From NCBI GenBank assembly GCA_965197475.1, contig CBDANF010000002.1, forward strand, positions 288,001 through 352,000: DNA of 64,000 bases, read 5' to 3'. Shown one piece after another: positions 9,149-61,385 of the stretch. Origin of the DNA: Candidatus Poribacteria bacterium (GTDB lineage Bacteria; Poribacteria; WGA-4E; WGA-3G). The position numbers and the translations under genes are program-made. The notes beneath the pieces were generated by a model. It was not told the DNA's origin and made no database searches. It worked only from the letters and a program-made list of their open reading frames with translations. Position 1 is the stretch's first letter. Each line of letters starts with the position of its first letter.

Positions 9149-9157
9149 TGCTTCTCC

Positions 9158-15233: not shown

Positions 15234-15242
15234 GAGTTCAGA

Positions 15243-15590: not shown

Positions 15591-15629
15591 GTTTAACCGA
15601 TACATTTGCTCATTAGAATTTACACTATT

Positions 15630-15876: not shown

Positions 15877-15886
15877 AAAGGCAACT

Positions 15887-44103: not shown

Positions 44104-45740
44104 AAACGGAATTCCTTTCTGATTACAACTTTCACAAAATTAATTCTTTCCTACACGTTCTCTCGTGTTTGCGCGATACGCGCGGTATCACCTGCCAACG
44201 CAGGTATTAGTAGACACACGATTTTCAATCGATTTTACATAAAACTTCAGTAGTCGTTATTCTTTTGCTGTTGCTGTCGCTATGTTTGAAGCTCCACCTT
44301 CGCCCTCACTATTCACAGCTCGCACTTGGAAGCCATAAAGTTCACCGCCTGTACGTTCGGTTACCGTTACAAAAGTATATGTTCCGACTGTAGAGAACCA
44401 CGATGTCCAAGCACTCCATCCCGAACTATAGTATCTCCGAAACCGCGCCTCATAACCGGTAATCGCAGTGCCCCCATCATCGCTTGGCGCATCCCAAGAC
44501 AGATATACCGCGCCGACTATTGTACTATGTGTTGAAGCTCTGAGATTAGTCGGCGCACCCGGCACAGTCGTAGATGATTGTGGCGTGACAGTGACTTTAG
44601 ACGATTCTGGACCTGACCCAGAACTATTCACTGCACGCACTTTAAACGCATAAACCGTGCCATTCGTTAAGCCCGTTAGCGGAACGGACGTGCTGCTACC
44701 GTTGTCCGTGGATGCCCAAGATCTCCAAGAACCATCGTCATCGGTATCTCTGCGATATTCGTAACCTGTAATCGCACCTCCACCATCTGAGGATGGCGTA
44801 TCCCAAGATAACGTGACCTGTCCATCACCTGCGGTTGCCTGTAGATTCTGAGGCGCACCTGGTGTTGATATTAATGGTAATTGCGGTGTGCCGGTGGCAA
44901 TATCTGATTCTGAACCTGCTGCACCCACGCTATTCACCGCACGCACACGGAACTCATATAGGGTGTCATTCGTGAGACCCGTTACGGTTTCCGATAAATC
45001 TATCCCCGCGGATGTCCATGAACCGAAATCGCCGCTGCTCCCTTCGCGATAACTGTATTCGTAATCGGTAATTATTAAACCCCCATTTGAATTGGGAGCA
45101 TCCCAGTAAAGTGACACTTCACCATCACCCGCGGTTGCGTTTAGATTTTGCGGCGCACTCGGTATAGTGGCTGGCGTTGCATAAGCTGTCCTTGATTCGG
45201 TACTTTCACCCGCGCTATTCACAGCTCGTATCCGGAACTTGTATCCCGTGCCGTTGGTCAATCCAAAAACCGAATTAAGAGTGTTGGTATTACCCCACGA
45301 TGTCCATGATGAACCGAAACTTTGAGAGGTGCGGCTATATTGGTATTCGTAATCGCTAATATCCGCACCGCCATCATCGCTTGGTGCTGTCCAAGATAGA
45401 CTGACCCACCCATTGTAACCGTAGCCACTCAAACTTGTGGGGGCACTAGGCACCGTCGCAGGCGTTGATTCTAAAGACTCGGTAGCGGCACTTGCACTCT
45501 CACCATTCATCGCTTTCACCTGGAACTTAAAGTCGTCCCGTTCGTTAACCCCAAAACATCAAAAAATGTGTTCGACCCCGCGGGTATCCAAAGACTCCAT
45601 ATTGAAAATGGCACATCCACGCGATACCGGTATTTGTAACCGGTAGTCGTACCACCGCCAGCAGTCCAGGAAAGACGGACTTGACCATCCCCAAAAGACG
45701 CACTAAAATTTGTCGGTGTATCTGGTGGTGCGGTGTCTGT
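43973..45740. repeat. 1.77-kb direct duplication, copy 1 (FN3 tail + intergenic + nuoI 5' end)
   Basis: Near-identical to 57933-59700 (offset 13960); a few SNPs. Confidence 0.95.
44257..45519 (-). CDS. Fibronectin type III repeat tail (4 complete FN3), frameshift-separated from the upstream protease ORF
   Basis: Repeated PSAP.NL.ATAGDG.V.LSW..P..DGG..IT.YEY....GLTNGT.Y.F.VRAVN. Confidence 0.9.
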   Translation of the reverse strand: MKAMNGESASAATESLESTPATVPSAPTSLSGYGYNGWVSLSWTAPSDDGGADISDYEYQYSRTSQSFGSSWTSWGNTNTLNSVFGLTNGTGYKFRIRAVNSAGESTESRTAYATPATIPSAPQNLNATAGDGEVSLYWDAPNSNGGLIITDYEYSYREGSSGDFGSWTSAGIDLSETVTGLTNDTLYEFRVRAVNSVGAAGSESDIATGTPQLPLISTPGAPQNLQATAGDGQVTLSWDTPSSDGGGAITGYEYRRDTDDDGSWRSWASTDNGSSTSVPLTGLTNGTVYAFKVRAVNSSGSGPESSKVTVTPQSSTTVPGAPTNLRASTHSTIVGAVYLSWDAPSDDGGTAITGYEARFRRYYSSGWSAWTSWFSTVGTYTFVTVTERTGGELYGFQVRAVNSEGEGGASNIATATAKE

Positions 45741-47732
45741 ACTAGTAACAATATCGGTGTCAGTGTCTTGACTGAGTTGATTTTCAAGGTTTTCCTCGTT
45801 GACGGGATGCTCTGTCCACTCCGGGTCCTCGTTCCCTTGCGGCGCACCTAAATCATACTCATAGTGGTGAAATACAGGGTAAATAGTTTCAGGATAAATG
45901 CCATACGCACGGGGGCCCGACATATAGTAGTCATAGTCCATAATGGATCTGCCGTAGGTATACGTGAAGGGACCCGTTGATATTCGAGACTTATTACCAC
46001 TATAAGTGTGGAATTTGAGCGTAAAAGTCGTAGTTTTCTTATCAGCATACTCATCCTCTGAGTCGGAGATATTCCAATAAAGATTTCGTTTTTGCAATGC
46101 TATTTGGTAGGCATCCGTCTCTCTATAGTCATTGCGGGCTTTCTCCGCATTCTTCTCGGCTTGCTCTCCTGCTTCGGGCGTTCGCTGGGCGGGGGGTAAG
46201 GCGTTAAATGCACTTACGATCTCATCATACTTGGCAGTTGCTGTCCGTGCTTCTGTTTGCCATGCTTCGAAAATCGATACCCTTCTTGCTATTTCATCAT
46301 GGGCTGCTTCTCTTTTCGGTTTGCCTGTATTGTCGAAAGCATACAAACCGATCCAGCCGGTTGCGGTACTCCCAAGTTGGAGACTGGCATCTTCCTCGAA
46401 ATCAAGTTTAGGATACACTGCCTTCTCTGCATCGGTCAGTGTAGGAACGCCTCCGTTAAAAGAGACTTTCCAGGGGTGCTTCAGTCCGATAGCATGTCCT
46501 ATTTCATGTCCTATCGTAGAATAAATAATTGCATCTTTCGTTGTCAGTTGATTTCCATCGTTATCTGTCTGTCGTGCAAGCCACTCAGGAAATCCGAGAT
46601 AATTATCACCATTGCCAACCGCGTTAGCCCTATTATCAATGGTATTGGTATAAATGTCAATAGTGTCATCCGCGTTTGTCCACCCCAAAAGGTTTGTCGT
46701 TGTCGTCTGTTTCTCAACCCATATCGCCTTTTTCGGCATGATCCACCAAGATACGTCGGCAGTATCTCGGATCGCTGTCGGCGCACCAAGCTTGTTAAAG
46801 TTGACGATGCGGTCATTTTTACCATCTTTCGTCTCGGTTTCCAGTATTTCGTATATAACGAACACACCCGGGAGTTTGTAGGCAGCACCGATACCCGATT
46901 TCGTCAGCCCTTTTTCACCAAACTCAGCGTATTGACTGTAAACAAAGATGTCTTTATTTTTCGGGTTCAAGCGTGTATGACTTCCACCAACCATGAACCC
47001 ACGGTATTCTTCAAACACGCACAGACCATCACCGATATGTGTATTCGTTTGCACACGGTTTTCATCGCCACCGGTTGTCGGACCCTCCTCAGTGTCCGCG
47101 GGCGGTATATGTCCGGTCGCGCCATCCCACTTATCTTTTTCCCATGAATCGGCAATGTAGTCGCCGTTGTCGTCCTTCGGAATAAATTTATTATCCGACC
47201 CCTGGCTCGTACCCGTAGAATTTGACAGTTCTGCAACAAGTCTGCCATACGCACCGCCATCTTCACAGCGAACGGTTATTGTAAACGTGATAGTAGCTCC
47301 AACATTGCTGTCAGAGTTAAACTTGACACCTACGCTGTCCCGCACGGCTATATTAACATTTGTCAGTTCTCTACCGACGAGGTCATTCCAGATGGCCGGT
47401 TCCCATCTTAAACCCGCAGGAAGCGGCACCTGATCTGCCGGATAGAAACGCAGATCAGGGTCGGTGCCAGGATTTTCACGGGGCATGTTCATACAAATAC
47501 CTATCCAACTCGAAACCTTTTCAAAACTCAAACTGACCGACCCCTCAGAAAAATCGATACCAGAAACCTCAACAGTGAAAGTTATTTTGCCCTGATCCGT
47601 CGGTTTCCAATCATCATAATCCATCGGAGGTCTCAACTCCACAGACGCAGCACGCGTATCAGAGGGAGACAAACCTGCCAACGTTGTTAAAAGACATAAT
47701 AGTATGATGTAAACAAATAAGCGATCTGTCAT
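45516..47732 (-). CDS. Secreted zinc metalloprotease-like protein (variant 1), continues into FN3 repeats after a 1-bp frameshift
   Basis: Signal peptide; W.P/CMN/DL.F N-domain; PKDDNGDYIADSWE; GDGL..EEYRGF; HEIGHAIGLKH; SIMDY Met-turn-like; first FN3 at the C-terminus. Confidence 0.75.
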   Translation of the reverse strand: MTDRLFVYIILLCLLTTLAGLSPSDTRAASVELRPPMDYDDWKPTDQGKITFTVEVSGIDFSEGSVSLSFEKVSSWIGICMNMPRENPGTDPDLRFYPADQVPLPAGLRWEPAIWNDLVGRELTNVNIAVRDSVGVKFNSDSNVGATITFTITVRCEDGGAYGRLVAELSNSTGTSQGSDNKFIPKDDNGDYIADSWEKDKWDGATGHIPPADTEEGPTTGGDENRVQTNTHIGDGLCVFEEYRGFMVGGSHTRLNPKNKDIFVYSQYAEFGEKGLTKSGIGAAYKLPGVFVIYEILETETKDGKNDRIVNFNKLGAPTAIRDTADVSWWIMPKKAIWVEKQTTTTNLLGWTNADDTIDIYTNTIDNRANAVGNGDNYLGFPEWLARQTDNDGNQLTTKDAIIYSTIGHEIGHAIGLKHPWKVSFNGGVPTLTDAEKAVYPKLDFEEDASLQLGSTATGWIGLYAFDNTGKPKREAAHDEIARRVSIFEAWQTEARTATAKYDEIVSAFNALPPAQRTPEAGEQAEKNAEKARNDYRETDAYQIALQKRNLYWNISDSEDEYADKKTTTFTLKFHTYSGNKSRISTGPFTYTYGRSIMDYDYYMSGPRAYGIYPETIYPVFHHYEYDLGAPQGNEDPEWTEHPVNEENLENQLSQDTDTDIVTSTDTAPPDTPTNFSASFGDGQVRLSWTAGGGTTTGYKYRYRVDVPFSIWSLWIPAGSNTFFDVLGLTNGTTLSSR

Positions 47733-48883
47733 TATTCTGTCTCCTTACTCTTATCAATTATAAGTTTCCTGGTTTTTTCATCGTAAATGTATTTTGGAGC
47801 CGGCCCGAAATACGAATATCCCTTGCGCTGCTCATAAACTTTATCTTGTGCCTTCTCTATACCATCAAGACTATTACTATATGGCAACCTTTGTATCCAA
47901 GATAATCCCTGATAGGCAGCGACAGAGTTTTCCCACTTACCGAGTTTCGCATAACATTTTGCTAACAATGAGTTCTTTTTCGCAATACGGCTATCCAGTT
48001 GACAGGCTTTCTGAATGTGCTCAAGAGCTAAGGCATACTTGTTCTTTATATAGTAGTACCACGCGATATCTTCGTGTGCAAAGGCAGCGTTTGGGAACTT
48101 TGCCAGCAGCTGCTTGTATGCTTCAATCCGTTCATCGTATGGATCGTATGGATGACATTTTACCCAGACGCGCATCGCCTCGACAGAGTTTGGGTTTTCC
48201 CGCATCGCACGCACTGCATACTCAAGACCAAACGTTTCGCGGGTGAGAGAGGAGCTCATAAGATACTTTGCAGCGGTGAGAGTATCTATGCCTTCAAACA
48301 GAATCTCAAGCCTTTTTCGTTCACGGACATCTTCTGGGAGCGTTGTTGGCAGTGCGTCCATTCGCTCCTCTTGTCCCTTTGTCATGTAAAAGATTTTACC
48401 TGTGAAAGGTGCCTTATTCTTATCCACCGGATAGTCTACAAAGATAGCACCGGGGTAGCCGCGAACATCATCCCATATCGGTTTTCCTTTTTGGTCATAA
48501 GGGAGGATTTTTATCTTGTCTTTGAAAGGATTGGTGCCGATAAGAGCAGGATCATAGAGTGCCTTTATCGGCACAGCAAAGTCTGGTTTCCACAGCAGAT
48601 CAGGATTAGCAATAACTTCTTTTTTGCGTTCAATAGATTCCGGGTAGCCTCTATTTTCAGCGACATCTGCCTTGAATTGTTCTATAAGCCGCTCAAAACT
48701 CGGTTCTTGGAACGGGGGCAGTTTGACCGGTTTACGACTATTTGCAGGGACGGGACCGTAGGCAGCTTGGTTATACGGATCTGCGTGTTCGGGCACAGTT
48801 TCCACGTCACAGCCACTGTAGCCTGCAAGCAGGATAACGGTTAGCATCAGTCCGGTTGTGAGGGTATCAATACGAAATTTCAT
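47732..48883 (-). CDS. TPR lipoprotein (array cassette L1), coupled to the intact protease
   Basis: MKFRIDTL...LAGYSGC lipobox; C-terminal TPRs; TAATG overlap with the protease. Confidence 0.8.
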   Translation of the reverse strand: MKFRIDTLTTGLMLTVILLAGYSGCDVETVPEHADPYNQAAYGPVPANSRKPVKLPPFQEPSFERLIEQFKADVAENRGYPESIERKKEVIANPDLLWKPDFAVPIKALYDPALIGTNPFKDKIKILPYDQKGKPIWDDVRGYPGAIFVDYPVDKNKAPFTGKIFYMTKGQEERMDALPTTLPEDVRERKRLEILFEGIDTLTAAKYLMSSSLTRETFGLEYAVRAMRENPNSVEAMRVWVKCHPYDPYDERIEAYKQLLAKFPNAAFAHEDIAWYYYIKNKYALALEHIQKACQLDSRIAKKNSLLAKCYAKLGKWENSVAAYQGLSWIQRLPYSNSLDGIEKAQDKVYEQRKGYSYFGPAPKYIYDEKTRKLIIDKSKETE

Positions 48884-48923
48884 CAGTTTTCTCCTTTTGC
48901 TTGACTTGCTGAGTCTCAACAGT

Positions 48924-49006
48924 TTATGTAGCAAGGTTAGCGACCGTATAGTTCGGTGCTTCCTCCGTAATATCAATATCGTGCGGATGGCTTTCTCGGT
49001 AACCAC
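48924..49006 (-). pseudogene. guaB: guaB 3'-end fragment copy (83 bp)
   Basis: GYRESHPHDIDITEEAPNY = IMP dehydrogenase C-terminus. Confidence 0.85.
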
Positions 49007-49116
49007 CCATTATACGCATCCAAATTCGCTGGCTCTATAGAAACACTCGGTGGACCATCCGCAGCGGACGGATTCAGCACACTAAACAATGTCAAAACAG
49101 AAATGCGATATTTCAT
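49007..49116 (-). pseudogene. 5' stub of the secreted protease family
   Basis: MKYRISVL.../...PSVSIEPANLDAYNGWLP; ATGA overlap with the lipoprotein stop. Confidence 0.6.
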
Positions 49117-50222
49117 TTGTCATATCCTTCTTGTATTAATTCTATAAGTGAATACCCTTTTCGTTGCTTCCGAATCTTATCTTTTGCTATATCCAACTCA
49201 CTATCCAACTTATATATCCGCAATGGACTTGGTTGGAAAAAATAATCCATTCCCTGATAGGCAGCAACGGCTTTCTCCCATTCCCCAAGTGTGAAATAGC
49301 ATATCGCTAACAAGTCATTCGTTTTGGCAATACGACTGTCTAACTGACAAGATTTTTGCATATGAACCAGTGCAGCCTCCGGGTCATCTTTCTCGTAGTA
49401 ATAGTGCCACGCGATTAGCTCGTGAGCAAACGCATCGTTGGGGAACTTTGAAAGCAGCTGTTGGTATGCCTCAATCTTTTGATCTTCAGGATGGCATTTG
49501 ACCCAAATACGCATCGCTTCAACAGAGTTCGGATTTTCACGTATTGCACGCTCCGCATATTCAACGCCAATAGCTTTTTTGTTAGGAGAATTCATTTGGC
49601 TCAGGTGTTTTGCAGCAGTGAGTGTATCTACCCTCTCATACACAATCACAGCACGTTTTCTATAGTAGTTAATATCTGCGTCCGAATTTGGATTCAAATG
49701 CCTCCAGTTTTGCCGTACAGCATCCAACCTCTCCTCTTGATCTTTTGTTTTGTAGATAACTTTGCCCGCAAAAGGATACACTTCTTTGTCATGATCATAG
49801 ACCCCGTGTATAGGTTTTCCTTTTTCAGAATAAGAGCGGACTTTTATCTTATCGCGTGTTGGATTGTAGCCCGGCAGTCTTGGGATTTCATCGAAATTTA
49901 GTGTGGGGGGCACCTCAAATCCGATGCCATCCCACAGTATATCGGGGTTGGCAATTGCTTTTCTTTTGCGTTTGAGCATCTCTGGGTCCCCCTTATTTTC
50001 AGTGACATCTGCTTTGAACTGTTCTATCAGTCTCTCAAAACTCGGTTCAACAATGGTTAGTTTTACGGGCTTTCGGCTATTCGCCGCGACGGGTCCGTGT
50101 TCTGCTTGGTTATAAGGGTCTGCGTGTTCGGGGGCGGTTTTCTGTCCGCAGCCAGAGCAACCAGCGAGCAGAGTAACGGTCGTCAATAGTAAAGTTGTGA
50201 GGATTTCAATACGAAATTTCAT
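49113..50222 (-). CDS. TPR lipoprotein (cassette L2)
   Basis: MKFRIEIL...LLAGCSGC; paralog of L1. Confidence 0.8.
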   Translation of the reverse strand: MKFRIEILTTLLLTTVTLLAGCSGCGQKTAPEHADPYNQAEHGPVAANSRKPVKLTIVEPSFERLIEQFKADVTENKGDPEMLKRKRKAIANPDILWDGIGFEVPPTLNFDEIPRLPGYNPTRDKIKVRSYSEKGKPIHGVYDHDKEVYPFAGKVIYKTKDQEERLDAVRQNWRHLNPNSDADINYYRKRAVIVYERVDTLTAAKHLSQMNSPNKKAIGVEYAERAIRENPNSVEAMRIWVKCHPEDQKIEAYQQLLSKFPNDAFAHELIAWHYYYEKDDPEAALVHMQKSCQLDSRIAKTNDLLAICYFTLGEWEKAVAAYQGMDYFFQPSPLRIYKLDSELDIAKDKIRKQRKGYSLIELIQEGYDK

Positions 50223-50262
50223 CAGTTTTCTCCTTTTGCTTGACTTGCTGAGTCTCAACAGT

Positions 50263-50490
50263 TTATGTAGCAAGGTTAGCGACCGTATAGTTCGGTGCTT
50301 CCTCCGTAATATCAATATCGTGGGGATGGCTTTCTCGGTAACCGCTGCTTGACATACGGACAAATTGGACATCTCTGCGTAACGACTCAATATCTGGTGT
50401 GCCGCAATATCCCATAGCGGAACGAATCCCACCTACTAACTGATAGACAAAATTGCTCAGTTTGCCTTTATGAGGCACTCGACCTTCAAT
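50263..50490 (-). pseudogene. guaB: guaB 3'-end fragment copy (228 bp)
   Basis: IEGRVPHKGKLSNFVYQLVGGIRSAMGYCG...ESHPHDIDITEEAPNY. Confidence 0.92.
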
Positions 50491-50625
50491 AACACGCCAT
50501 CACCTATTTTAGCACCAATACGCACAGTGTGCAAGCGTTTTGACGTGTGTTCAAGGATAAATGCTTTTGTGTCTGCAGCATCCGCAGCGACAGAATTTTG
50601 TTTGTGTTTTTCATTTGCATTTTAC

Positions 50626-50797
50626 GCAAGCCCCCTTCAATAACAGGGCTATCTTTTGCTGGGTACCATGGCTTCGGTACAGAAACCTTTATCTTATTGT
50701 TATTAGTGGGAGCTTGTTCTGCAGCACCAATAGCATTGTCAATAAAATATATGTGTATACTCAACAAAACTAATAAAAATATGATTGCCCTATTCAT
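50626..50797 (-). pseudogene. 5' stub of a secreted protein (MNRAII...KPWYP)
   Basis: Signal peptide plus W.P motif; truncated at the junction with a duplicated foreign segment. Confidence 0.55.
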
Positions 50798-51806
50798 TGG
50801 TTTTCTCCTTTTTGGGTCGCCCAATCTTACCAATCTTGTTATCTCGCTGCATCGTCATAATATGGTATTCTGCACCTTCTGGGCCATACTTAGACAAATG
50901 CTTTAATGTTTCCAACGCTTTGGCATCTTCTTCTGTCCAGTAAAAGTATGCTTTAGCCAATTCAAACAATATACCTGTTTTCAAAAAAGTTGGGTGGTCT
51001 GCTGGCACATCGGGTGCGTATTGATATGCTTTTTTCAGTAAAGGTATTGCCTCCGCAGAATACGTTATATCCCCTAACCTATAAAGCGCGTAAGGTGCGT
51101 TTGGACGCATTTTCAATAAACGCCAATAGCCGTCCCTTTTTTTGTCATAATTCCGTTGGAAGCGTGTCCAAACGAGTAACGTGTGGTAATCGTCTGGGTT
51201 GTCATCAAGGGCTTGTTGCGCATACTTCAAGTCTCGGTCTGTGTAAATATTGTGCGCAGCAATATATTTCACAGCATTCAGTGGGGTCATGCCTTCCGTC
51301 ATTATCTCTGCCCGTTTGTCTGCTAATTCTGATTCGATTTCTCGGATAATGTCCCCTCTGCGTTTTTCTGATGTTACGCCTTCAATTCTTTTTTTGAGTT
51401 TATCCCTATATTCGTATTCGCGTTGTTCATATCGCGCCCATTTCTCCGCATGGTTAGGCGCGATTGGCACCATGTCATTATATTCCGCTGGTGTATCCTC
51501 AATCTCCCATTCATAGTCAAAATCGGGTATCCAAAAAATAGGGTCGTCTTGATAGTCGGGCGGTGGTGCTGTGCCTGTTGCCGTAAGGTCTTCATACGGG
51601 TTTTCGGGTGGGTAATATGTGGTCGGTATAACTTCCGAGTCCAGTATCTCTGTCGGGGGCGTGCGTCCATCTGTTATGTCCGCACCGTTTTTCTCCGACT
51701 CGGCTTTTTCGTCGGTAATGTTTTGCTGTTGACACCCTAAACTTCCAACAAATAAAATAAAGGCTGTCATCAGTAAAGTGGTGATGTGTGCTGTGATAAG
51801 TTTCAT
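50790..51806 (-). CDS. TPR lipoprotein (cassette L3; no guaB fragment upstream)
   Basis: GSLGC lipobox; YPPENPYEDLTATGTAPP shared with L4. Confidence 0.8.
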   Translation of the reverse strand: MKLITAHITTLLMTAFILFVGSLGCQQQNITDEKAESEKNGADITDGRTPPTEILDSEVIPTTYYPPENPYEDLTATGTAPPPDYQDDPIFWIPDFDYEWEIEDTPAEYNDMVPIAPNHAEKWARYEQREYEYRDKLKKRIEGVTSEKRRGDIIREIESELADKRAEIMTEGMTPLNAVKYIAAHNIYTDRDLKYAQQALDDNPDDYHTLLVWTRFQRNYDKKRDGYWRLLKMRPNAPYALYRLGDITYSAEAIPLLKKAYQYAPDVPADHPTFLKTGILFELAKAYFYWTEEDAKALETLKHLSKYGPEGAEYHIMTMQRDNKIGKIGRPKKEKTNE

Positions 51807-51921
51807 CGTTTGTTCCCCTTATTGATTTGAAGTATGCAGTTTGCTTTTATAAATGCTCGTTTTATCAATAAATACTACCATCTGATATGACTATCTTAAA
51901 ACGAATATAAATATGATTGCT

Positions 51922-52932
51922 CTATTCATTGGAAGTCTCCTTTGTGCCACGCACAAACATACCAATCTTGTTATCGCGTTGCATAGACGTAATATAGTAT
52001 TCTGCGCGTTCTGGGTTAAACTTTGACATATACTCCAACGTTTCCAACGCTTTTGCATCTTCACGAGTCTCGTAGTAGTATTTTTTAGCCAATTCATACA
52101 ATGCACCGTATTGTATATTAAACCCGCTGGGTTTAAGTGGTTCTTCTGGGGCGTATTGCAGTGCCTTCTTGAGTATAGGTATCGCCTCGGGGGAATGTGT
52201 ATAACGACCTAACCTATAAAGCGTGTAGGGTGCGTTGGGGCGCATTTTGACCAAACGTTGATAGGCTTCCCTTCTTTTATCTAAATCAACTTGTGCTTCT
52301 GTCCAAACGAGTAGGGTGTGATAATCATTCGGGTTTTCATCAAGGGCTTGCTGCACATATTTCAATACATGGTCTGTATTCATGTTATGTGCAATCAAAT
52401 ACTTTGCAGCATTGAGGGGTGTCAAGCCTTCGGTCATTATCTCTGCCTTGATGACCTTTAATTTCGACTGGTTCACTTTGTAAATTTGCAACAGCAATTT
52501 TTCTGATGTTACGTCTGTTACGTTTTTCAGTTCTTCCTCAAATTTATCGTCAAATTCTTTCTCGTGTTGTTCAAACCGTGCCATTTTCTCCGCACGGTTG
52601 GGTGCTATAGGCAAGGATACTGCATATTTCTCTGTGATGTCAGATTCTAACTCATATTCAAACGCTGGTATCCAGAAAATAGGGTTGCCTTTATAGTCGC
52701 TGGGCGGTGCCGTTCCTGTTGCCGTAAGGTCTTCATACGGGTTTTCGGGTGGGTAAAAGGTTGTGGGAAGTGTTGTATCCGCATCTGCTTCGGGGAACGG
52801 TGTAACATCCTTTTGCGTATCCGCTTGCGGTTCAACTTGTTCTGGTGGTTTCTGTTTATCCCCATTGCAGCCAACGAGTAGAATAACGACTATCATTAGT
52901 AAAGTTGTGAGTATTTCAATACGGATTTTCAT
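51922..52932 (-). CDS. TPR lipoprotein (cassette L4)
   Basis: MKIRIEIL...LLVGC; paralog of L3; followed by a 12-codon MNRAII stub (51891-51929). Confidence 0.8.
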   Translation of the reverse strand: MKIRIEILTTLLMIVVILLVGCNGDKQKPPEQVEPQADTQKDVTPFPEADADTTLPTTFYPPENPYEDLTATGTAPPSDYKGNPIFWIPAFEYELESDITEKYAVSLPIAPNRAEKMARFEQHEKEFDDKFEEELKNVTDVTSEKLLLQIYKVNQSKLKVIKAEIMTEGLTPLNAAKYLIAHNMNTDHVLKYVQQALDENPNDYHTLLVWTEAQVDLDKRREAYQRLVKMRPNAPYTLYRLGRYTHSPEAIPILKKALQYAPEEPLKPSGFNIQYGALYELAKKYYYETREDAKALETLEYMSKFNPERAEYYITSMQRDNKIGMFVRGTKETSNE

Positions 52933-52972
52933 CAGTTTTCTCCTTTTGCTTGACTTGCTGAGTCTCAACAAT

Positions 52973-53428
52973 TTATGTAGCAAGGTTAGCGACCGTATAG
53001 TTCGGTGCTTCTTCGGTAATATCAATATCGTGCGGATGGCTTTCCCTGTAACCACTGCTTGACATACGGACAAATTGCACATCTCTGCGTAACGACTCAA
53101 TATTGGACGTGCCGCAATATCCCATAGCAGAACGAATTCCACCTACTAACACCCGATCCGCGATGGTAAAATATAGATCAGCATCGTCGCCTGTCCCTTT
53201 GTTCATGCATGTCTCTTCCCAAGTGGATACATTGGTCAGATTTAACTCGATGGAACCTGTGGATTGGGCACCTGCGACGGTCACAAGAAAAGTGACCGTG
53301 TCCCCATCTTCAGGTAGCCACGCATTAAACTCTGTTTCATTTAACGGTTCTATACAGACGTTTTGCGCGTGTGCAAACGGTAATAATGTAAACAATAAAA
53401 GCAAAATAGTGAGATAATAATTTTTCAT
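52973..53428 (-). pseudogene. Chimeric ORF: protease-family 5' stub fused in frame to the guaB 3' fragment (52973-53150)
   Basis: MKNYYL...NAWLPE...TCMNKG..DLYF..DRV|LVGGIRSAMGYCG...APNYTVANLAT. Confidence 0.85.
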
Positions 53429-53478
53429 AAAATAAACCCCTAATTAATAATCTAAGGTATGACATTAACGATTGATGT

Positions 53479-54600
53479 TTATTGTGAATTGTCTATAGGC
53501 TCCAATTTTTTAGGGTTGTAAAATGAACGACCTTTTCGCTGTATAAATACCCCGTCTTGTGCTGTCGTAAGATGTGTATAGACTCCACCCCCCAACTGAC
53601 CGTATGAGTCTATTACAGATATGCTCTGATAGACTGCGACCGCTTTCTCCCATTCCCCAAGTGTCTCATAACAGGAGGCTAATCCAGCCTTTGATAATGA
53701 TTCGTGACGACTATCAAGTTGTATCGCTTTTTGGTAATGTGGGATGGCTAACTCAGGAGAATCCAGCTTTCTGTGGTATATATAACCAAGGATTGAATGG
53801 GAATTGGCATCGTTAGGGAACTTTGCTAACAACTTTTCATACGCATTTTTTTTATCTTCTATAGGTTCCCACGGAACGCAGCCTGTCCAAATAGACATCG
53901 CCTCTACAGAGTTTGGGTTTTCGCGCACGGCACGTTCAGCGTATTCAAGTCCGATGGTATGTGCAACACTTGCAGTCTCTTTGCTCAGATACTTTGCCGC
54001 TGTGAACGTATTTATACCCTCAAGCTTTATCTCATACTTTTTACGTATTCGCTCTTCTATTGAGAGATCGTAGGTATGTGAGATTGCTGCCATTCTCTTC
54101 TCTTGTTCTTTTGTAGTATAGAAAACCTTACCTTTGAATTCATACTGAGTGTCACCACCATCCGCGAAGGTGGCGAGTATCGGTTTTCCTTTCTGACTCT
54201 CACGCAGTATCTTTATATCTCTTCTAAACGGGTTTCCCCCTGGAGCAAATCTGGGGTCTTGAAAGTTGTGATTCGGGACACAAAATCCAGGTGTCCATAG
54301 CTGATCAGGGTTCTCGATCGCCTGTTTTTTACGAGCAAGCACTTCTGGGTCGCCACGGTTGGCTGCCACATCTGCTTTGAATTGTTCAATAAGATTCTCA
54401 AAACTCGGTTCGGGGAAAGGATCCAGTTTTGCCTGTTTGCGCGTGTTCGCTGCGACTGGTCCGTATTTAGATTGTTCGTTGTGATCGTCTGTCGGTTCAA
54501 TCCCTTTGAGGGCGTTTTTTTGTGCACATCCAGCGCATCCGCTTAATAGGATTATCACTGTAAGAAACACAGTTGTGAGGGTTTCTATGCGAAATAACAT
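53479..54600 (-). CDS. TPR lipoprotein (cassette L5)
   Basis: MLFRIETL...LLSGCAGC; GPVAAN..PSFE.LIEQFKADV shared with L1/L2. Confidence 0.8.
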   Translation of the reverse strand: MLFRIETLTTVFLTVIILLSGCAGCAQKNALKGIEPTDDHNEQSKYGPVAANTRKQAKLDPFPEPSFENLIEQFKADVAANRGDPEVLARKKQAIENPDQLWTPGFCVPNHNFQDPRFAPGGNPFRRDIKILRESQKGKPILATFADGGDTQYEFKGKVFYTTKEQEKRMAAISHTYDLSIEERIRKKYEIKLEGINTFTAAKYLSKETASVAHTIGLEYAERAVRENPNSVEAMSIWTGCVPWEPIEDKKNAYEKLLAKFPNDANSHSILGYIYHRKLDSPELAIPHYQKAIQLDSRHESLSKAGLASCYETLGEWEKAVAVYQSISVIDSYGQLGGGVYTHLTTAQDGVFIQRKGRSFYNPKKLEPIDNSQ

Positions 54601-54641
54601 TTTGATTCTCCTTTTTGCCTGGCTTGCTGAGTCTCAACAAT

Positions 54642-54724
54642 TTATGTAACAAGGTTAGCGACCGTATAGTTCGGTGCTTCCTCCGTAATATCAATATCGT
54701 GCGGATGGCTTTCTCGGTAACCAC
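54642..54724 (-). pseudogene. guaB: guaB 3'-end fragment copy (83 bp)
   Basis: Same junction as 48924-49006; preceded by a duplicate protease stub at 54725-54834. Confidence 0.85.
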
Positions 54725-54830
54725 CCATTATACGCATCCAAATTCGCTGACTTTATAGAAACACTCGGTGGACCATCCGCAGCGGACGGATTCAGCACAC
54801 TAAACAATGTCAAAACAGAAATGCGATATT

Positions 54831-55949
54831 TCATTTGTCATATCCTTCTTGTATTAATTCTATAAGTGAATACCCTTTTCGTTGCTTCCGAATCTTATCT
54901 TTTGCTATATCCAACTCACTATCCAACTTATATATCCGCAATGGACTTGGTTGGAAAAAATAATCCATTCCCTGATAGGCAGCAACGGCTTTCTCCCATT
55001 CCCCAAGTGTGAAATAGCATATCGCTAACAAGTCATTCGTTTTGGCAATACGACTGTCTAACTGACAAGATTTTTGCATATGAACCAGTGCAGCCTCCGG
55101 GTCATCTTTCTCGTAGTAATAGTGCCACGCGATTAGCTCGTGAGCAAACGCATCGTTGGGGAACTTTGAAAGCAGCTGTTGGTATGCCTCAATCTTTTGA
55201 TCTTCAGGATGGCATTTGACCCAAATACGCATCGCTTCAACAGAGTTCGGATGCTCACGCATCGCACGCTCCGCATATTCAATGCCGATAATTTTTGTGC
55301 TGGGATGATCAGGATCATTGAATTGACTCAAATATTTTGCTGCTGTGAGTGTGTCTATTCCTTCAAATGTAATCACATACTGTTCTCGGTAATAGTCAAC
55401 ATCCGCTCTTGAGTTCGGATTCGCATTATGCCAGTTTTGGCGCGCAGCATCCTTCCTTTCCTTTTGCTCTTTTGTGATGTAGATAACTTTGCCCGCAAAA
55501 GGATACACTTCTTTGTCATGATCATAGACCCCGCGTATAGGTTTTCCTTTTTCAGAATAAGAGCGGACTTTTATCTTATCGCGTGTTGGATTGTAGCCCG
55601 GCAGTCTTGGGATTTCATCGGAATTTAGTGTGGGGGGCACCTCAAATCCGATGCCATCCCACAGTATATCGGGGTTGGCAATTGCTTTTCTTTTGCGTTT
55701 GAGCATCTCTGGGTCCCCCTTATTTTCAGTGACATCTGCTTTGAACTGTTCTATCAGTCTCTCAAAACTCGGTTCAACAATGGTTAGTTTTACGGGCTTT
55801 CGGCTATTCGCCGCGACGGGTCCGTGTTCTGCTTGGTTATACGGATCTGCGTGTTCGGGCACAGTTTCCACGTCACAGCCACTGTAGCCTGCAAGCAGGA
55901 TAACGGTTAGCATCAGTCCGGTTGTGAGGGTATCAATACGAAATTTCAT
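54831..55949 (-). CDS. TPR lipoprotein (cassette L6), mosaic of L1 and L2
   Basis: N-terminus identical to L1, most of the body identical to L2, unique middle patch. Confidence 0.8.
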   Translation of the reverse strand: MKFRIDTLTTGLMLTVILLAGYSGCDVETVPEHADPYNQAEHGPVAANSRKPVKLTIVEPSFERLIEQFKADVTENKGDPEMLKRKRKAIANPDILWDGIGFEVPPTLNSDEIPRLPGYNPTRDKIKVRSYSEKGKPIRGVYDHDKEVYPFAGKVIYITKEQKERKDAARQNWHNANPNSRADVDYYREQYVITFEGIDTLTAAKYLSQFNDPDHPSTKIIGIEYAERAMREHPNSVEAMRIWVKCHPEDQKIEAYQQLLSKFPNDAFAHELIAWHYYYEKDDPEAALVHMQKSCQLDSRIAKTNDLLAICYFTLGEWEKAVAAYQGMDYFFQPSPLRIYKLDSELDIAKDKIRKQRKGYSLIELIQEGYDK

Positions 55950-55989
55950 CAGTTTTCTCCTTTTGCTTGACTTGCTGAGTCTCAACAAT

Positions 55990-56487
55990 TTATGTGTTCA
56001 GGTTAGCGACCGTATAGTTCGGTGCTTCCTCCGTAATATCAATATCGTGCGAATGGCTTTCTCGGTAACCACTGCTTGACATGCGGACAAATTGGACATC
56101 TCTGCGTAATGTCTGTCTCGAACCGCTTCGGTTATCTTCTTCTCGGAAAAAGAGATCTACTGATCTACCGGTGTCATCGTCCCCGTTAGCATTCATGCAG
56201 ATGCCAGGCCACTCAGAAGAATCAAGAGTAAACGTATACGTCACAGAATCAATTCGGACAGATTGTCCTGTTTTAGTTTCCCCCTTAAGTGTTGCCACAA
56301 ACTCTGCGTTTGTCTTATATTCAGGTCGCCAATCTGCCCATGTTGTTGGAGACGCCGGTTCAAGGTTCAGCTCGAATGTCGGCGTATTGGCATTTCCGTT
56401 TGCCTCTGCCGAGCCAACAGGTAAGTAAAACGGTAAACAAATAACCAATGTTAACAGTATCAATGAAATAATAACATTCTTTCGCAT
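55990..56487 (-). pseudogene. Chimeric ORF: protease-family 5' stub fused in frame to the guaB 3' fragment (55990-56109)
   Basis: MRKNVII...ADWRPE...WPGICMN..DLFF..RQT|LRRDVQFVRMSSSGYRESH. Confidence 0.85.
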
Positions 56488-56521
56488 AATATTCTCCTTA
56501 ATTGATGTCATCAACTTCTCT

Positions 56522-57529
56522 CTAACGCCGCAGTGGTGTCGGCAGATGGGGACCGAGGATCGGTAGTCCAGCCTTTCTTATCTTTTCACGCACGTCCTCA
56601 CCTTTGCCCCCACTGTTCACAACATCTTCCGCTGTAAGGAACAACGAACTGATCGCACCGATGATGTAAGAAGGTTGTGAGGTTGCCACCGCATATTGAT
56701 GTGAACGCCGGAACGATGCTAATGCCTTTTGGTAATCGCCCATTTGATAATAACACATCCCCTCAAGTCCTAATGGAAGATAACGCGGGTCTAATTCTTG
56801 TGCTTTTTGTGCATAACCGAGTGCCTCTTGCGGATTCGTTCCTAAAATACATTTAGCAAGTCTATGCAGGACCCACGGATGGTTTGGATTCATTTCATAC
56901 AAACGACGGGTCGCTGCCGTTTTTTCTTCACCATAAGGGTTTGCCAAATTTCCACCTGCGAGCACCCACAGCAGCAAGGTATCAAAATCATCAGGATTTT
57001 CGGCATACGCAAGGTTTATTAAATTGCTCACTCTGTGATCAATCGATCCACTTAGTTCAATGTCCAGCTGCGCGGATGCGACAAGACCATATTCCCGAAA
57101 ATATTGAAGGGCTATTTCATCAGACTCTTTAGCAGTTATCGTCTTTTGTCTTCCGGCTTTAAGCAATTTTCTTGATATTTCCACGCGATTTATCCACCAC
57201 TCAATAGGAACAACGATTGGGTCCCATGGCAAAGGAATGCCAGCTTCATTTTTACGCGATATCTCAATGTATTCAATACCTTTTAGGGACTTAAGGTAAT
57301 CCAAATCACTGAAGTTCTTTGGAGATAATTTTGCGGTTTTTCCGCGTGGTTTGGGTTTTGTCCCATTTTGCTTTACTCCGGATAACTTAGGCACCCTATC
57401 TGGTGTTGATTGATTCGGTGGTGTGATAGGTGTATCGGGATCCGTTTTTTGTCCGCAACCAGAGCAACCACCGAGTAGTATTACCACTATCAAAAGTAAA
57501 ATTGCGAGGTTTTCAATACGAAGTTTCAT
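56522..57529 (-). CDS. TPR lipoprotein (cassette L7)
   Basis: MKLRIENL...LLGGCSGC; ENPDDFDTLLLW, TPRs. Confidence 0.8.
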   Translation of the reverse strand: MKLRIENLAILLLIVVILLGGCSGCGQKTDPDTPITPPNQSTPDRVPKLSGVKQNGTKPKPRGKTAKLSPKNFSDLDYLKSLKGIEYIEISRKNEAGIPLPWDPIVVPIEWWINRVEISRKLLKAGRQKTITAKESDEIALQYFREYGLVASAQLDIELSGSIDHRVSNLINLAYAENPDDFDTLLLWVLAGGNLANPYGEEKTAATRRLYEMNPNHPWVLHRLAKCILGTNPQEALGYAQKAQELDPRYLPLGLEGMCYYQMGDYQKALASFRRSHQYAVATSQPSYIIGAISSLFLTAEDVVNSGGKGEDVREKIRKAGLPILGPHLPTPLRR

Positions 57530-57568
57530 TGTTTTCTCCCTTGGCTTGACTTACTGAGTCTCAACAAT

Positions 57569-57796
57569 TTATGTGTTCAGGTTAGCGACCGTATAGTTCG
57601 GTGCTTCCTCCGTAATATCAATGTCGTGGGGATGGCTTTCTCGGTAACCGCTGCTTGACATACGGACAAATTGGACATCTCTGCGTAACGACTCAATATC
57701 TGGTGTGCCGCAATATCCCATAGCGGAACGAATCCCACCTACTAACTGATAGACAAAATTGCTCAGTTTGCCTTTATGAGGCACTCGACCTTCAAT
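57569..57796 (-). pseudogene. guaB: guaB 3'-end fragment copy (228 bp)
   Basis: Near-identical to 50263-50490. Confidence 0.92.
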
Positions 57797-57932
57797 AACA
57801 CGCCATCACCTATTTTAGCACCAATACGCACAGTGTGCAAGCGTTTTGACGTGTGTTCAAGGATAAATGCTTTTGTGTCTGCAGCATCCGCAGCGACAGA
57901 ATTTTGTTTGTGTTTTTCATTTGTATTTTACA

Positions 57933-58063
57933 CTTCTCGGATCTTCGGGGTACTGAACTGTTAATTTCTTCTTAGGGATGTGTTTTAACGTTGTGAACAT
58001 CCCCTTAATCAACGCTGGGATATAGAGTCTATCCCAAAATGACATCTCTTCGTTAACTCTCAT
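57933..58063 (-). pseudogene. nuoI: nuoI 5' fragment (about 43 codons)
   Basis: Copy of 43973-44103 ending at ...QYPEDPR. Confidence 0.88.
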
Positions 58064-58216
58064 AAACGGAATTCCTTTCTGATTATAACTTTCACAAAAT
58101 TAATTCTTTCCTACACGTTCTCTCGTGTTTGCGCGATACGCGCGGTATCACCTGCCAACGCAGGTATTAGTAGACACACGATTTTCAATCGATTTTACAT
58201 AAAACTTCAGTAGTCG

Positions 58217-59479
58217 TTATTCTTTTGCTGTTGCTGTCGCTATGTTTGAAGCTCCACCTTCGCCCTCACTATTCACAGCTCGCACTTGGAAGCCATAAAG
58301 TTCACCGCCTGTACGTTCGGTTACCGTTACAAAAGTATATGTTCCGACTGTAGAGAACCACGATGTCCAAGCACTCCATCCCGAACTATAGTATCTCCGA
58401 AACCGCGCCTCATAACCGGTAATCGCAGTGCCCCCATCATCGCTTGGCGCATCCCAAGACAGATATACCGCGCCGACTATTGTACTATGTGTTGAAGCTC
58501 TGAGATTAGTCGGCGCACCCGGCACAGTCGTAGATGATTGTGGCGTGACAGTGACTTTAGACGATTCTGGACCTGACCCAGAACTATTCACTGCACGCAC
58601 TTTAAACGCATAAACCGTGCCATTCGTTAAGCCCGTTAGCGGAACGGACGTGCTGCTACCGTTGTCCGTGGATGCCCAAGATCTCCAAGAACCATCGTCA
58701 TCGGTATCTCTGCGATATTCGTAACCTGTAATCGCACCTCCACCATCTGAGGATGGCGTATCCCAAGATAACGTGACCTGTCCATCACCTGCGGTTGCCT
58801 GTAGATTCTGAGGCGCACCTGGTGTTGATATTAATGGTAATTGCGGTGTGCCGGTGGCAATATCTGATTCTGAACCTGCTGCACCCACGCTATTCACCGC
58901 ACGCACACGGAACTCATATAGGGTGTCATTCGTGAGACCCGTTACGGTTTCCGATAAATCTATCCCCGCGGATGTCCATGAACCGAAATCGCCGCTGCTC
59001 CCTTCGCGATAACTGTATTCGTAATCGGTAATTATTAAACCCCCATTTGAATTGGGAGCATCCCAGTAAAGTGACACTTCACCATCACCCGCGGTTGCGT
59101 TTAGATTTTGCGGCGCACTCGGTATAGTGGCTGGCGTTGCATAAGCTGTCCTTGATTCGGTACTTTCACCCGCGCTATTCACAGCTCGTATCCGGAACTT
59201 GTATCCCGTGCCGTTGGTCAATCCAAAAACCGAATTAAGAGTGTTGGTATTACCCCACGATGTCCATGATGAACCGAAACTTTGAGAGGTGCGGCTATAT
59301 TGGTATTCGTAATCGCTAATATCCGCACCGCCATCATCGCTTGGTGCTGTCCAAGATAGACTGACCCACCCATTGTAACCGTAGCCACTCAAACTTGTGG
59401 GGGCACTAGGCACCGTCGCAGGCGTTGATTCTAAAGACTCGGTAGCGGCACTTGCACTCTCACCATTCATCGCTTTCAC
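58217..59479 (-). CDS. FN3 repeat tail, identical to 44257-45519
   Basis: Identical 420-aa translation. Confidence 0.9.
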   Translation of the reverse strand: MKAMNGESASAATESLESTPATVPSAPTSLSGYGYNGWVSLSWTAPSDDGGADISDYEYQYSRTSQSFGSSWTSWGNTNTLNSVFGLTNGTGYKFRIRAVNSAGESTESRTAYATPATIPSAPQNLNATAGDGEVSLYWDAPNSNGGLIITDYEYSYREGSSGDFGSWTSAGIDLSETVTGLTNDTLYEFRVRAVNSVGAAGSESDIATGTPQLPLISTPGAPQNLQATAGDGQVTLSWDTPSSDGGGAITGYEYRRDTDDDGSWRSWASTDNGSSTSVPLTGLTNGTVYAFKVRAVNSSGSGPESSKVTVTPQSSTTVPGAPTNLRASTHSTIVGAVYLSWDAPSDDGGTAITGYEARFRRYYSSGWSAWTSWFSTVGTYTFVTVTERTGGELYGFQVRAVNSEGEGGASNIATATAKE

Positions 59480-59504
59480 CTGGAACTTAAAGTCGTCCCG
59501 TTCG

Positions 59505-61385
59505 TTAACCCCAAAACATCAAAAAATGTGTTCGACCCCGCGGGTATCCAAAGACTCCATATTGAAAATGGCACATCCACGCGATACCGGTATTTGTAAC
59601 CGGTAGTCGTACCACCGCCAGCAGTCCAGGAAAGACGGACTTGACCATCCCCATAAGACGCACTAAAATTTGTCGGTGTATCTGGTGGCGCGGTGTCTGT
59701 GCCTGACCATCAGTCCCAGTGCCATTGTCGTTATCTTCATCGTTGTCTAGTTCCCATTGTGGCTTGGTTTTACGGGGCGGATCCAGCAACGGCTTGGCAA
59801 GATGTGCTGCACGAACATCGGGGGCAACGAATTGGTATTCACTGTTATGGAAGTCGGGGTACTCTTTGCTCCCTTCGTAACCGGACATGTAGGAAGAGGC
59901 AGCCGCGTTATATCCCTTATTAGAATACTCGCCAACGACGTGAGGATCACCGTAATCCATTATGGTTTCACCAGGTCTATTAAAAAGGAACGTTCCCAAC
60001 GCACCACCAACTCTATCTGTTAACCAAGGATGATACAAGTTGATACCGTGTCCAAGTTCATGACCAATATAACGTTTTATCATTTCAGAGGTGGTTGGTA
60101 ATGCCTTATTCGGTTCATGTTCTTCCATCTCCGCAACAGCAGCTTTATTTCGTTCTTTGATGTATTCATGAAAAATGTAGACATATAACACCTGATGACA
60201 TGGACCGACAACCGGTTCAATAATACCATATATTCCAACATAATCTGTCCCGTTTGAGTGTGTGTAACTACCGTTTGCGTTCTCATGCTTTCTGACCCAG
60301 AGGTCGCGCTGTTTTACGACTTGTAAGGCGTTACCGCAACTTCGAGAATTCATAACACATGGATCCCCTTGAACGTCTATCACGGGATTCCCTTGAGCGT
60401 CCATCACATCATTCCCTTGAGCGTCTTTCTTTATGGGATCATTCATTTCCGCAAACAGGATTTGGTGAGTTGTTATGATATCATCAGGTAGGTTACTTGC
60501 ATAACCGATGCCCTCATCAAACTCGGAATGGATAAAGAGGTCTTTCTTCCTTGAATCCGTGCGGATATGCTCGCCTTGGACGATGAAACCACGATATTCT
60601 TCAAGCACGGTGAAACCATCACCGCGGAAAGTATTGTTGCCGGGACCGGTTTCTTCATCTGCCCACGGGTCATAATCGTGTATCGCGTCGTCTTGCCACC
60701 CATCGGCGATGTCGTTGCCATTATTGTCTTTGGGAATCGAAAGACTGTCGTTTGCTGAGGTGTTATTGCTTGGGGTGCCATCTTCCTCTTCGCCTTCTGC
60801 ATCTTCCTTATCGTTGAGGCTTACAAAACCATCAAGTATGCCGTGTCCACCATAGTCATCAACGTAAAGATATATGGAAATACCTGTATGAGGTGTTTTG
60901 CAGGTAACCGTCAGGATCGGCCCATTCGTCCCGCTAACCCGATACTTTAATTGATCAGTGTCTGCGGGTTGGTCTGTTTGACGAAAGTAAATATCCTTTT
61001 GAGAGTCGGACTGATCGCCTTTATTCATGCAGAAACCTGGGTAATCGGAAACATTATTTCGCAGCGTAAAAGTGTAGGAAGTTGATGTGATGGCATCAGT
61101 CTCCTCTGAACCCGCAATGATATAGGCAGAAATAGTAAGGACTGTTTTCTGGGCCGGTCTCCAGTCCTCCCACGTAATATTTTCAAATTCACCATCGGAT
61201 TCCTTAGCCGCAGTGGGGTGAAGTTTTAGTTTGTAAGTGTCATCACCATTTGCTGCACAAGGCTGCTGAGAAATGACTAAACTGATAACGACGATAGGTA
61301 ACAAAGTCAAGATAAGATATTGAGGGTATTGGTTAAATAATGATGCAAGAATTAGCGGGATACCCTCTGAACCGCGCTGCATCAT
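59505..61385 (-). pseudogene. Secreted metalloprotease-like protein (variant 2), out of frame with its FN3 tail at about 59700
   Basis: WRPA, FCMNKG, DIYF, PKDNNGNDIADGWQ, GDGF..EEYRGF, HELGHGINLYH, TIMDY. Confidence 0.72.

Follow-up and report, generated by a model that had tools for sequence, protein, structure and literature searches.

Islands carried by integrases leave duplicated gene 3' ends as att sites (with tRNA, tmRNA and guaA-type targets), and tandem accretion of such islands gives several copies of the fragment. Orphan arrays produced by C-terminal displacement were reportedly described for Rhs and CdiA by Jackson in 2009, Poole in 2011 and Koskiniemi in 2014. Here we analyse a comparable arrangement in Candidatus Poribacteria, dominant and uncultured symbionts of sponges, within a 64,000-nt stretch of one genome (hereafter the window; positions 288,001 to 352,000 of contig CBDANF010000002.1, assembly GCA_965197475.1), in which a row of lipoprotein genes is punctuated by six 3' fragments, or tails, of guaB, the gene for IMP dehydrogenase. 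We consider that this array probably arose from a few old illegitimate joins, followed by homologous recombination at the tails that included lateral exchange. In orphan arrays of Rhs, contact-dependent inhibition (CDI) and type VI secretion system (T6SS) loci, each module that has been displaced retains part of the conserved anchor, which allows homologous recombination between modules (PMC5361080; also PMC8125069), and homology-facilitated illegitimate recombination (HFIR) has been proposed as the mechanism (PMC5361080).

Like the Rhs and CdiA orphan arrays, the poribacterial locus has variable modules lined up behind a conserved upstream anchor, a piece of which stands at the 5' end of each module. 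It differs from them in taking its anchor from the 3' end of a housekeeping gene unrelated to the modules and not from the core of the variable gene itself, in that the modules are complete genes with their own start, ribosome-binding site (RBS) and signal peptide, and in that these genes encode lipoproteins and proteases instead of toxin/immunity pairs. The orphan immunity-gene arrays of the Vibrio cholerae T6SS likewise grow downstream of a conserved gene and hold modules most similar to those of other strains, and the model proposed for them invokes one homologous anchor and one illegitimate end (PMC5361080). Whereas that model gives one new junction per insertion, the junctions described here turn up repeatedly and in more than one species, and most of the later changes seem to be the work of homologous recombination between repeated anchors. 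In antigenic variation of the pilE/pilS type the silent copies have no start, RBS or promoter and come to expression only once they have been moved to one site; here, in contrast, every cassette has an RBS, an ATG and a signal peptide. No description of this locus was found in searches of the literature on Poribacteria guaB or on guaB as an integration hotspot.

The genome under study, referred to as G000, is a metagenome-assembled genome (MAG) of a sponge symbiont that is 92.7% complete with 7% contamination; C2 and C3 denote other contigs of the same assembly. A blastn search of this assembly, with the last 1500 nt of the G000 guaB and 150 nt downstream as query, recovered six guaB 3' fragments in the window, all on the minus strand and with starts at 49004, 50491, 53149, 54722, 56109 and 57797 (E values from 4e-41 to 6e-160). 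An earlier sequence-only reading of the window had reported six fragments of 83, 228, ~178, 83, ~120 and 228 bp; all six are real, and their lengths were matched within 2 nt. The tails, each named for its junction (J) and followed by the lipoprotein gene that it precedes, are as follows.

48924..49006, minus strand: guaB tail J83 (-81/83), copy 1; precedes lipoG
50263..50490, minus strand: guaB tail J229 (228 nt), copy 1; precedes lipoF
52973..53150, minus strand: guaB tail J178; precedes lipoD
54642..54724, minus strand: guaB tail J83, copy 2; precedes lipoC
55990..56109, minus strand: guaB tail J120; precedes lipoB
57569..57796, minus strand: guaB tail J229 (228 nt), copy 2; precedes lipoA

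Full-length guaB is missing from the window, as had been noted, and sits on C3 (G000:C3:203306-204817; IMP dehydrogenase, PF00478), where three extra tails (-81, -178 and -81) lie immediately downstream of it and bring the G000 total to nine. Every one of the nine stands before a lipoprotein gene. Alignment confirmed that the six window tails share one 3' end and one leader motif: all terminate at the guaB stop codon, which is followed by a 39-41-nt leader, A(C/T)TGTTGAGACTCAG(C/T)AAG...GGAGAA...ATG, running into the start of the lipoprotein gene. A fixed 3' end is simply what is expected of any unit obliged to include the lipoprotein gene. The C-terminal variants previously pointed out were also recovered in the window, with NLAT in three tails, NLVT in one and NLNT in two, and with both TPD and TSN present; among functional guaB genes, NLAT was seen only in the true guaB of genome G020, which is otherwise not the best match.

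The staggered 5' ends had been taken for six captured donor breaks, yet they amount to only four junction classes, -81/83 (twice), -229 (twice), -178 and -120, and alignment with flanks places all nine G000 tails in the same four. J83 is present four times (two copies in the window and two on C3), and each time it is preceded by 38 codons of a protease N-terminus (MKYRISVL...), which are identical beside both window copies; J229 is present twice, J178 has a twin on C3, and J120 is single in G000. In other species of the genus, J83 occurs three more times in G003, and J229 recurs in G013 and G050 with the same flank. Because J83 and J229 are doubled and the classes recur on C3 or in G003, G013 and G050, with J120 recurring by position only, in G049, the junctions appear to be old and to have been inherited or transferred ready-made. 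The left side of every junction is DNA from further downstream in the island, in the same orientation (head-to-tail): a protease N-terminus in J83, J178, J120 and the J233 of G003, FN3 sequence in the J103 of G052, and the FN3-nuoI spacer in J229, where the last ~70 nt upstream are 78.6% identical to the FN3-nuoI spacer of G003. The upstream flanks of the window tails are listed here.

49007..49116, minus strand: truncated N-terminus of a protease (38 codons, MKYRISVL...), with an ATG that overlaps the stop of lipoF; fused out of frame to J83 at GGTTACCG
50491..50625, minus strand: 135-nt segment upstream of J229 copy 1; kept at both J229 tails, its last ~70 nt resembling the G003 FN3-nuoI spacer
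53151..53428, minus strand: truncated protease N-terminus MKNYYL..., in frame with J178 as a 151-aa chimeric open reading frame (ORF)
54725..54834, minus strand: truncated protease N-terminus, a copy of 49007-49116, before J83 copy 2
56110..56514, minus strand: truncated protease N-terminus, third paralogue, in frame with J120 as a 174-aa ORF
57797..57931, minus strand: 135-nt segment, copy 2, upstream of J229

The 83-bp junction was correctly placed by the sequence-only reading within GGTTACCG, which the protease W-L-P and guaB G-Y-R codons have in common, and the TGGTTACCG overlap that it gave is correct. The microhomology at J83 comprises 8 nt (GGTTACCG), and a longer paralogue in G013 shows how the protease sequence would have continued. 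The suggested scoring of the junctions for microhomology gave a result at J83, and no parent sequences were recovered for J178, J120 and J229. The last ~70 nt of the 135-nt segment at 50491..50625 contain a sigma70-like TTGCAC-N17-TAAAAT, which we treat as a lead only. The in-frame ORFs at J178 and J120 (52973-53428 and 55990-56514) begin as a protease, with its signal peptide and N-terminal domain, and finish with the C-terminal 58 or 40 residues of IMP dehydrogenase.

Across the genus, breakpoints were located upstream of the guaB promoter (G055, G011), at -473, -233, -229, -178, -159, -120, -103, -81, -41 and -33, and inside the leader (G013b, G003c), which makes at least ten different breakpoints over a spread of more than 500 nt. 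A range that extends from upstream of the promoter to inside the leader leaves no att core, and the view that there is no att site of constant length therefore holds, no recombinase having been found near the arrays either. In G055 and G011 the breakpoint upstream of the promoter made a whole second guaB, one copy of which was later cut in G055 to the promoter and the last 473 nt of the gene; in G013 and at a third locus of G003 the breakpoint inside the leader leaves no tail. At the G055 locus (L023, G055:C21:2580000-2599000) the guaB promoter TTGAC[TC]-N17-TATAAT is seen twice, before the full guaB beside nuoI and, where the array begins, fused directly to the final 473 nt of guaB, so that the array there lies upstream of the functional guaB.

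For comparison of the locus, 31 further guaB loci were fetched from the same genus. In 26 of the 31 the nuoI-like gene comes straight after guaB, at a distance of 21-392 nt, and in these empty-site species the guaB match ends at the stop codon. Islands of varied content separate the two genes in G003, G005, G006, G049, G052 and G054, and a remnant does so in G009; G041 and G044 have islands downstream of guaB, the fetched stretch ending before any nuoI, and in G049 a tail stands directly before nuoI. Since the gap is empty at 26 of the 31 loci, the cassettes of tetratricopeptide repeat (TPR) lipoprotein, zinc protease and FN3 genes can be regarded as an island that grew there. Both flanks of the island are contiguous in G003, the guaB side matching C3 of G000 and the nuoI side matching the window, from which it follows that the guaB-nuoI locus is split in G000 and that the window holds the nuoI-side half. 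The two broken ends of the G000 island adjoin high-copy insertion sequence (IS) elements. On the window side (61413-63608) these are a ~1.36-kb DDE_Tnp_1 element and an IS1-like element, and on the C3 side (G000:C3:211482-212728) a ~1.25-kb element; the two large elements are each present in ~25 or more near-identical copies, and the genome is thus very IS-rich.

Arrays are also found away from guaB. A second array in G003 (L022, G003:C1:2225000-2244999, ~3369-16066) is a ~12.7-kb inserted block of tail-bearing cassettes that ends on one side in a DDE transposase and separates queG from pheA, two genes that are neighbours in G000 (C3:138061/138093). A third G003 array, without tails, is likewise distant from guaB. 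In G000 itself, a tail-less array on C2 (G000:C2:1134381-1146600) holds four copies from the same lipoprotein family followed by a protease and by FN3 repeats (tandem units 1134381-1143702).

This C2 array, which is an ordinary recent tandem duplication, served as a control for the pattern of identity within the guaB-linked units. When the ten units of the latter kind were compared pairwise, nucleotide identity was 87-99% over the last 83 nt of guaB, 72-100% in the leader and 59-100% in the signal peptide, and 40-93% in the next 900 nt (the body), whereas the C2 units were 88-94% identical along their whole length. Both arrays consist of head-to-tail units with truncated protease N-termini between lipoprotein genes; the C2 array is uniform and monophyletic and has no guaB tails, while the guaB-linked one is mosaic and polyphyletic. 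In the J229 pair only 2 mismatches were counted in 353 nt before dense mismatches set in from the last 10 nt of the tail, and in the J83 pair 2 mismatches in 469 nt gave way to divergence from the 3' end of the tail. These change-points in identity, falling as they do at the tail 3' ends, indicate that the tails act as homology anchors, a role that the sequence-only reading had already assigned to them.

The substitutions within the tails carry a further signal. Differences between tails and the resident guaB are distributed over codon positions 1, 2 and 3 as 14/7/69, and variants counted once as 6/3/29. The latter distribution departs from the 46% of third-position changes expected for a decaying tail compared with an evolving gene (p=1.4e-4), plain decay having an expectation of one-third. 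Functional guaB genes of other species contain 33 of the 38 unique tail variants, and tails with the same junction in different species differ mostly at third positions as well (22/25, 24/31 and 18/23). Such a synonymous bias points to tail interiors derived from several functional guaB alleles, for which recombination with functional genes, within or between genomes, is needed. The claim that the tail single-nucleotide polymorphisms (SNPs) are allelic in kind is well founded in this respect, judged by the 6/3/29 distribution of unique variants against the resident guaB.

Exchange between lineages is indicated on C3, where 2.6 kb from the last 81 nt of the true guaB through two lipoprotein genes (G000 C3:204764-207313) are 97-100% identical per 150-nt window to the second array of G003, except for one patch at 81-93%. 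The background between G000 and G003 is 80-91% in guaB and 72-87% in syntenic flanks. The J83 tails of G003 are closer to the guaB of G000 (97.5% and 92.6%) than to their own guaB (85.2%), and lipoC has a copy with 95% nucleotide identity at the third G003 locus. In a quick maximum likelihood (ML) tree of 41 lipoproteins, the tail-linked cassettes of G000 are scattered over six or more clades that also hold sequences of other species, and 10 changes are required for the G000 label, while the tail-less C2 array forms a monophyletic clade of G000 only. Sharing of cassettes across lineages, one part of the earlier proposal, is thereby upheld; the other part, that different donor strains supplied the tails, is not, as all tails are nearest to the resident guaB. 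The expectation that the SNPs of each fragment would match the strain with the adjacent lipoprotein allele was checked and failed, no tail tracking such a species: the next-best guaB belongs to the species with the nearest lipoprotein relative in 0/6 window tails. Since the tail allele does not track the lipoprotein relative, tails and lipoproteins have separate histories, as a crossover in the tail or leader predicts.

Contigs from the public runs X1, X4, X5 and X21 break at the tails, and the parts left uncovered in X4, X5 and X21 are uninformative. In X1, contigs that cover the block 50679-54454 have a depth of 189-207 and those of the unique parts of the array one of 17-20, a contrast of ~10x; the same block is present at 99% identity or more in two other studies, where the neighbouring cassettes are missing. 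X4 holds a joint of low depth (depth 2) from 50242 to 55970, a possible alternative pairing of tail and cassette that is too weak to count. For lipoF, lipoG and the FN3 gene, X21 contains RNA contigs that match at 99% or more, which is no proof of transcription from the G000 copies.

The sequence of events that we find probable would run as follows. In part of one Poribacteria genus, the otherwise short guaB-nuoI spacer is filled by a hypervariable cassette island, whose unit is a guaB 3' remnant, a ~40-nt leader with its RBS and a TPR lipoprotein gene, with a zinc protease, either truncated or whole, and an FN3 protein sometimes following. A few rare head-to-tail illegitimate joins would have linked the 5' part of a downstream island gene (or its flank) to a point inside guaB upstream of a lipoprotein gene, either by tandem duplication or by an incoming island copy that displaced the old one and pushed it downstream. 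From then on, the tails, which are direct repeats of 81-229 nt with 87-99% identity, would act as portable homology for recombination of the RecA type. Repeats of this length exceed the minimal pairing length of RecA in E. coli, and G000 encodes recA, comEC and dprA homologues, which shows that the machinery is encoded and no more than that. Recombination between tails inside the genome could duplicate, delete and re-pair cassettes, and cassettes of co-resident Poribacteria lineages could recombine in by way of the tails, with DNA arriving by whichever transfer route. Candidate events are unequal exchange, by which cassettes are gained or lost, loop-out followed by re-entry, and double crossover in which the incoming DNA is either tail-cassette-tail or flanked by guaB and nuoI. 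A bolder version, which we hold to be rather unlikely, would make tail and leader a functional cassette handle that needs no recombinase: the tail would be a universal homology tag kept by guaB conservation, co-resident Poribacteria species would share a pool of host-interaction lipoproteins and proteases, and the cassette brought next to the intact guaB would be co-transcribed with this highly expressed housekeeping gene, giving the tail a role in expression under an expression-site logic that runs on RecA.

Several points weigh against this sequence of joins and exchanges. Among 31 functional guaB genes compared, the resident one is nearest to every G000 tail (90-97%); none is closer than the resident to any of them and no donor was identified, and intragenomic conversion alone could explain much of the tail similarity. 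Donors were sampled as species representatives, a thin set of those possible. The lipoprotein tree was a quick one and not a careful search, and the codon-position test presumes equal neutral rates. Duplication and displacement are equally expected as the origin of each junction, which does not distinguish them. No recombination product or intermediate was seen in the public-run contigs, which stop at the tails and so leave cassette order and structural variants beyond checking. The depth contrast in X1 fits a shared cassette block, but it also fits a chimeric assembly. Finally, the J120 breakpoint is shared by G000 and G049 by position only, the upstream DNA being unrelated. We considered this coincidence as a site-specific signal and judged it to be chance, ~0.6 such pairs being expected among ~10 classes by our own estimate.

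The sequence-only reading, taken literally, holds that each tail records a separate capture of a broken donor fragment (guaB'-lipoprotein-protease') that was anchored in guaB and closed illegitimately at the other end. The synonymous-biased, and thus allelic, SNPs would fit such captures, as would the cassette relatives in other species and the 8 nt of microhomology at J83, and the mechanism is a known one that has been proposed for T6SS and Rhs orphan arrays (PMC5361080). Captures of this kind are quite improbable nonetheless, given only four junctions for six tails with J83 and J229 doubled between identical flanks, the recurrence of all classes on C3 or in other species, by which the junctions predate the array, the best match of the tails to the resident guaB, and the lack of any tail that tracks the species with the nearest lipoprotein relative. 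The reading was thus partly right overall: the anchoring role and the lateral sharing stand, and the six independent captures do not. Plain tandem duplication in situ followed by divergence, with the tails as passive scars and the lipoproteins evolving fast under diversifying selection, accords with the head-to-tail anatomy of the junctions, with the ordinary tandem array of the same family in G000 and with a 99.7% identical 1774-nt duplication inside the window. It is nevertheless improbable: divergence is uneven (tails 87-99%, bodies 40-93%) and changes sharply at the tails, the tail differences have a synonymous bias unlike decay, and there are both polyphyly among the cassettes and a tract with 97-100% identity to another species. 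Mosaic identity, the lateral tract, codon bias and the tree together refute duplication as the sole process.

A site-specific mobile system would be the explanation closest to the integrase-borne islands, with which the locus shares a 3' fragment of a conserved gene repeated at island borders. The guaB 3' end would then be the att site of an integrative or integron-like element whose recombinase lies elsewhere and whose families carry different lengths of guaB. Such a system would explain why the island always begins at the guaB stop codon, why all cassettes have one orientation, why discrete classes of tail length recur across species, why the G049 tail stands directly before nuoI, as attR would, and why the -120 breakpoint recurs with different flanks. 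We found no integrase in or beside any array examined, however, and the locus differs from integrase-borne islands in having no constant core, breakpoints scattered across more than 500 nt (the outermost ones upstream of the promoter and within the leader) and cassettes that carry no mobility genes; the second and third arrays of G003 are, moreover, away from guaB. The assembly as a whole (92.7% complete) contains one tyrosine-recombinase match (PF00589), on C3 at 1.86 Mb from guaB, and no match to serine recombinases (PF00239). Of the hallmarks of an integron, intI beside the array and attC sites at the cassette ends, the first was wanting, with no recombinase near either array; attC-like structures were not searched for. 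Such a system we consider very improbable, and still less credence is due to an assembly artefact, in which reads of co-occurring strains were joined at the tails into a chimera. The roughly tenfold depth difference across the array in X1, contigs that never bridge a tail and the 7% contamination of the MAG would all suit a chimera, but the same architecture and junctions recur in the independent assemblies G003 (a single 6.07-Mb contig), G013, G049, G052 and G055, and, if the assembly was made from long reads, repeats of 81-229 nt would be short for producing a misjoin.

If old joins followed by exchange at the tails shaped the array, as we favour, the locus shows how genes for host contact may be diversified and shared from a hotspot between two housekeeping genes. 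Whole lipoprotein/protease cassettes would be duplicated, re-paired and passed between species, apparently with no dedicated recombinase, which would extend the orphan-module logic of toxin loci to surface proteins with the end of a housekeeping gene as the anchor. The guaB-tail junction classes offer a concrete marker with which to follow, in metagenomes, how genes move among symbiont populations. TPR, FN3 and further eukaryote-like proteins that Poribacteria possess are thought to mediate host contact (PMC3909097).

Read along the minus strand, the window array consists of protease2, FN3, the initial 137 nt of nuoI, a 135-nt segment, tail229, lipoA, a fusion of a protease N-terminus with tail120, lipoB, a similar fusion with tail83, lipoC, another with tail178, lipoD, lipoE, a second 135-nt segment, tail229, lipoF, a further fusion with tail83, lipoG, the full protease1, FN3 and the nuoI-like gene. 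The order on C3 is guaB, a lipoprotein gene, tail83, a lipoprotein gene, tail178, a frameshifted lipoprotein gene, tail83, a lipoprotein gene and a protease N-terminus cut by an IS. Cassettes measure 1.1-1.7 kb, mobility genes are not among their contents, and each has its own RBS, ATG and signal peptide; the lipoproteins combine lipobox signal peptides with C-terminal TPRs, and the proteases carry HExxH. The genes and repeats of the window array are given below.

43555..44103, minus strand: nuoI-like 2x[4Fe-4S] gene, present once in the genome; forms the conserved right flank of the island
44257..45519, minus strand: FN3 protein with four FN3 domains
45516..47732, minus strand: protease1, full-length secreted zinc metalloprotease that closes the array; HExxH, weak reprolysin/serralysin motif match
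47732..48883, minus strand: lipoG, TPR lipoprotein cassette
49113..50222, minus strand: lipoF, TPR lipoprotein cassette
50790..51806, minus strand: lipoE, TPR lipoprotein with no tail before it
51922..52932, minus strand: lipoD, TPR lipoprotein, 56% aa identity to lipoE
53479..54600, minus strand: lipoC, TPR lipoprotein
54831..55949, minus strand: lipoB, TPR lipoprotein, 88% aa identity to lipoF
56522..57529, minus strand: lipoA, TPR lipoprotein
57927..59700, minus strand: 1774-nt repeat, 99.7% identical to 43967-45740, comprising a protease C-terminus, an entire FN3 gene, the spacer and nuoI as far as nt 137
59505..61385, minus strand: protease2, second paralogue at the upstream end of the window array, beside IS copies

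Through the 1774-nt repeat, the array contains a 5' fragment of nuoI, and the last 74 aa of protease1 and of protease2 are the same. The search for the protease family returned weak zinc-motif matches only and no solved relative. A promoter scan of 47600-58300 yielded 24 promoter-like matches against 22 +/- 4.3 in shuffles, which is no enrichment; in the same scan no consensus promoter was found inside the 83-nt tails and no terminator-like site on the coding strand. In lipoG and lipoB (48800-48883 and 55866-55949) the first 75 nt are identical, and the signal peptide reads LLAGYSGC where other copies have LLAGCSGC, with a tyrosine at the usual lipobox cysteine and a second cysteine three residues later. 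The third lipoprotein gene of the C3 array (G000:C3:207799-208897) is broken by a frameshift or stop into two ORFs of 160 and 234 aa. A gene for an MT-A70 family methyltransferase (42897-43460) follows the nuoI-like gene just downstream, in a flank that is conserved with G003.

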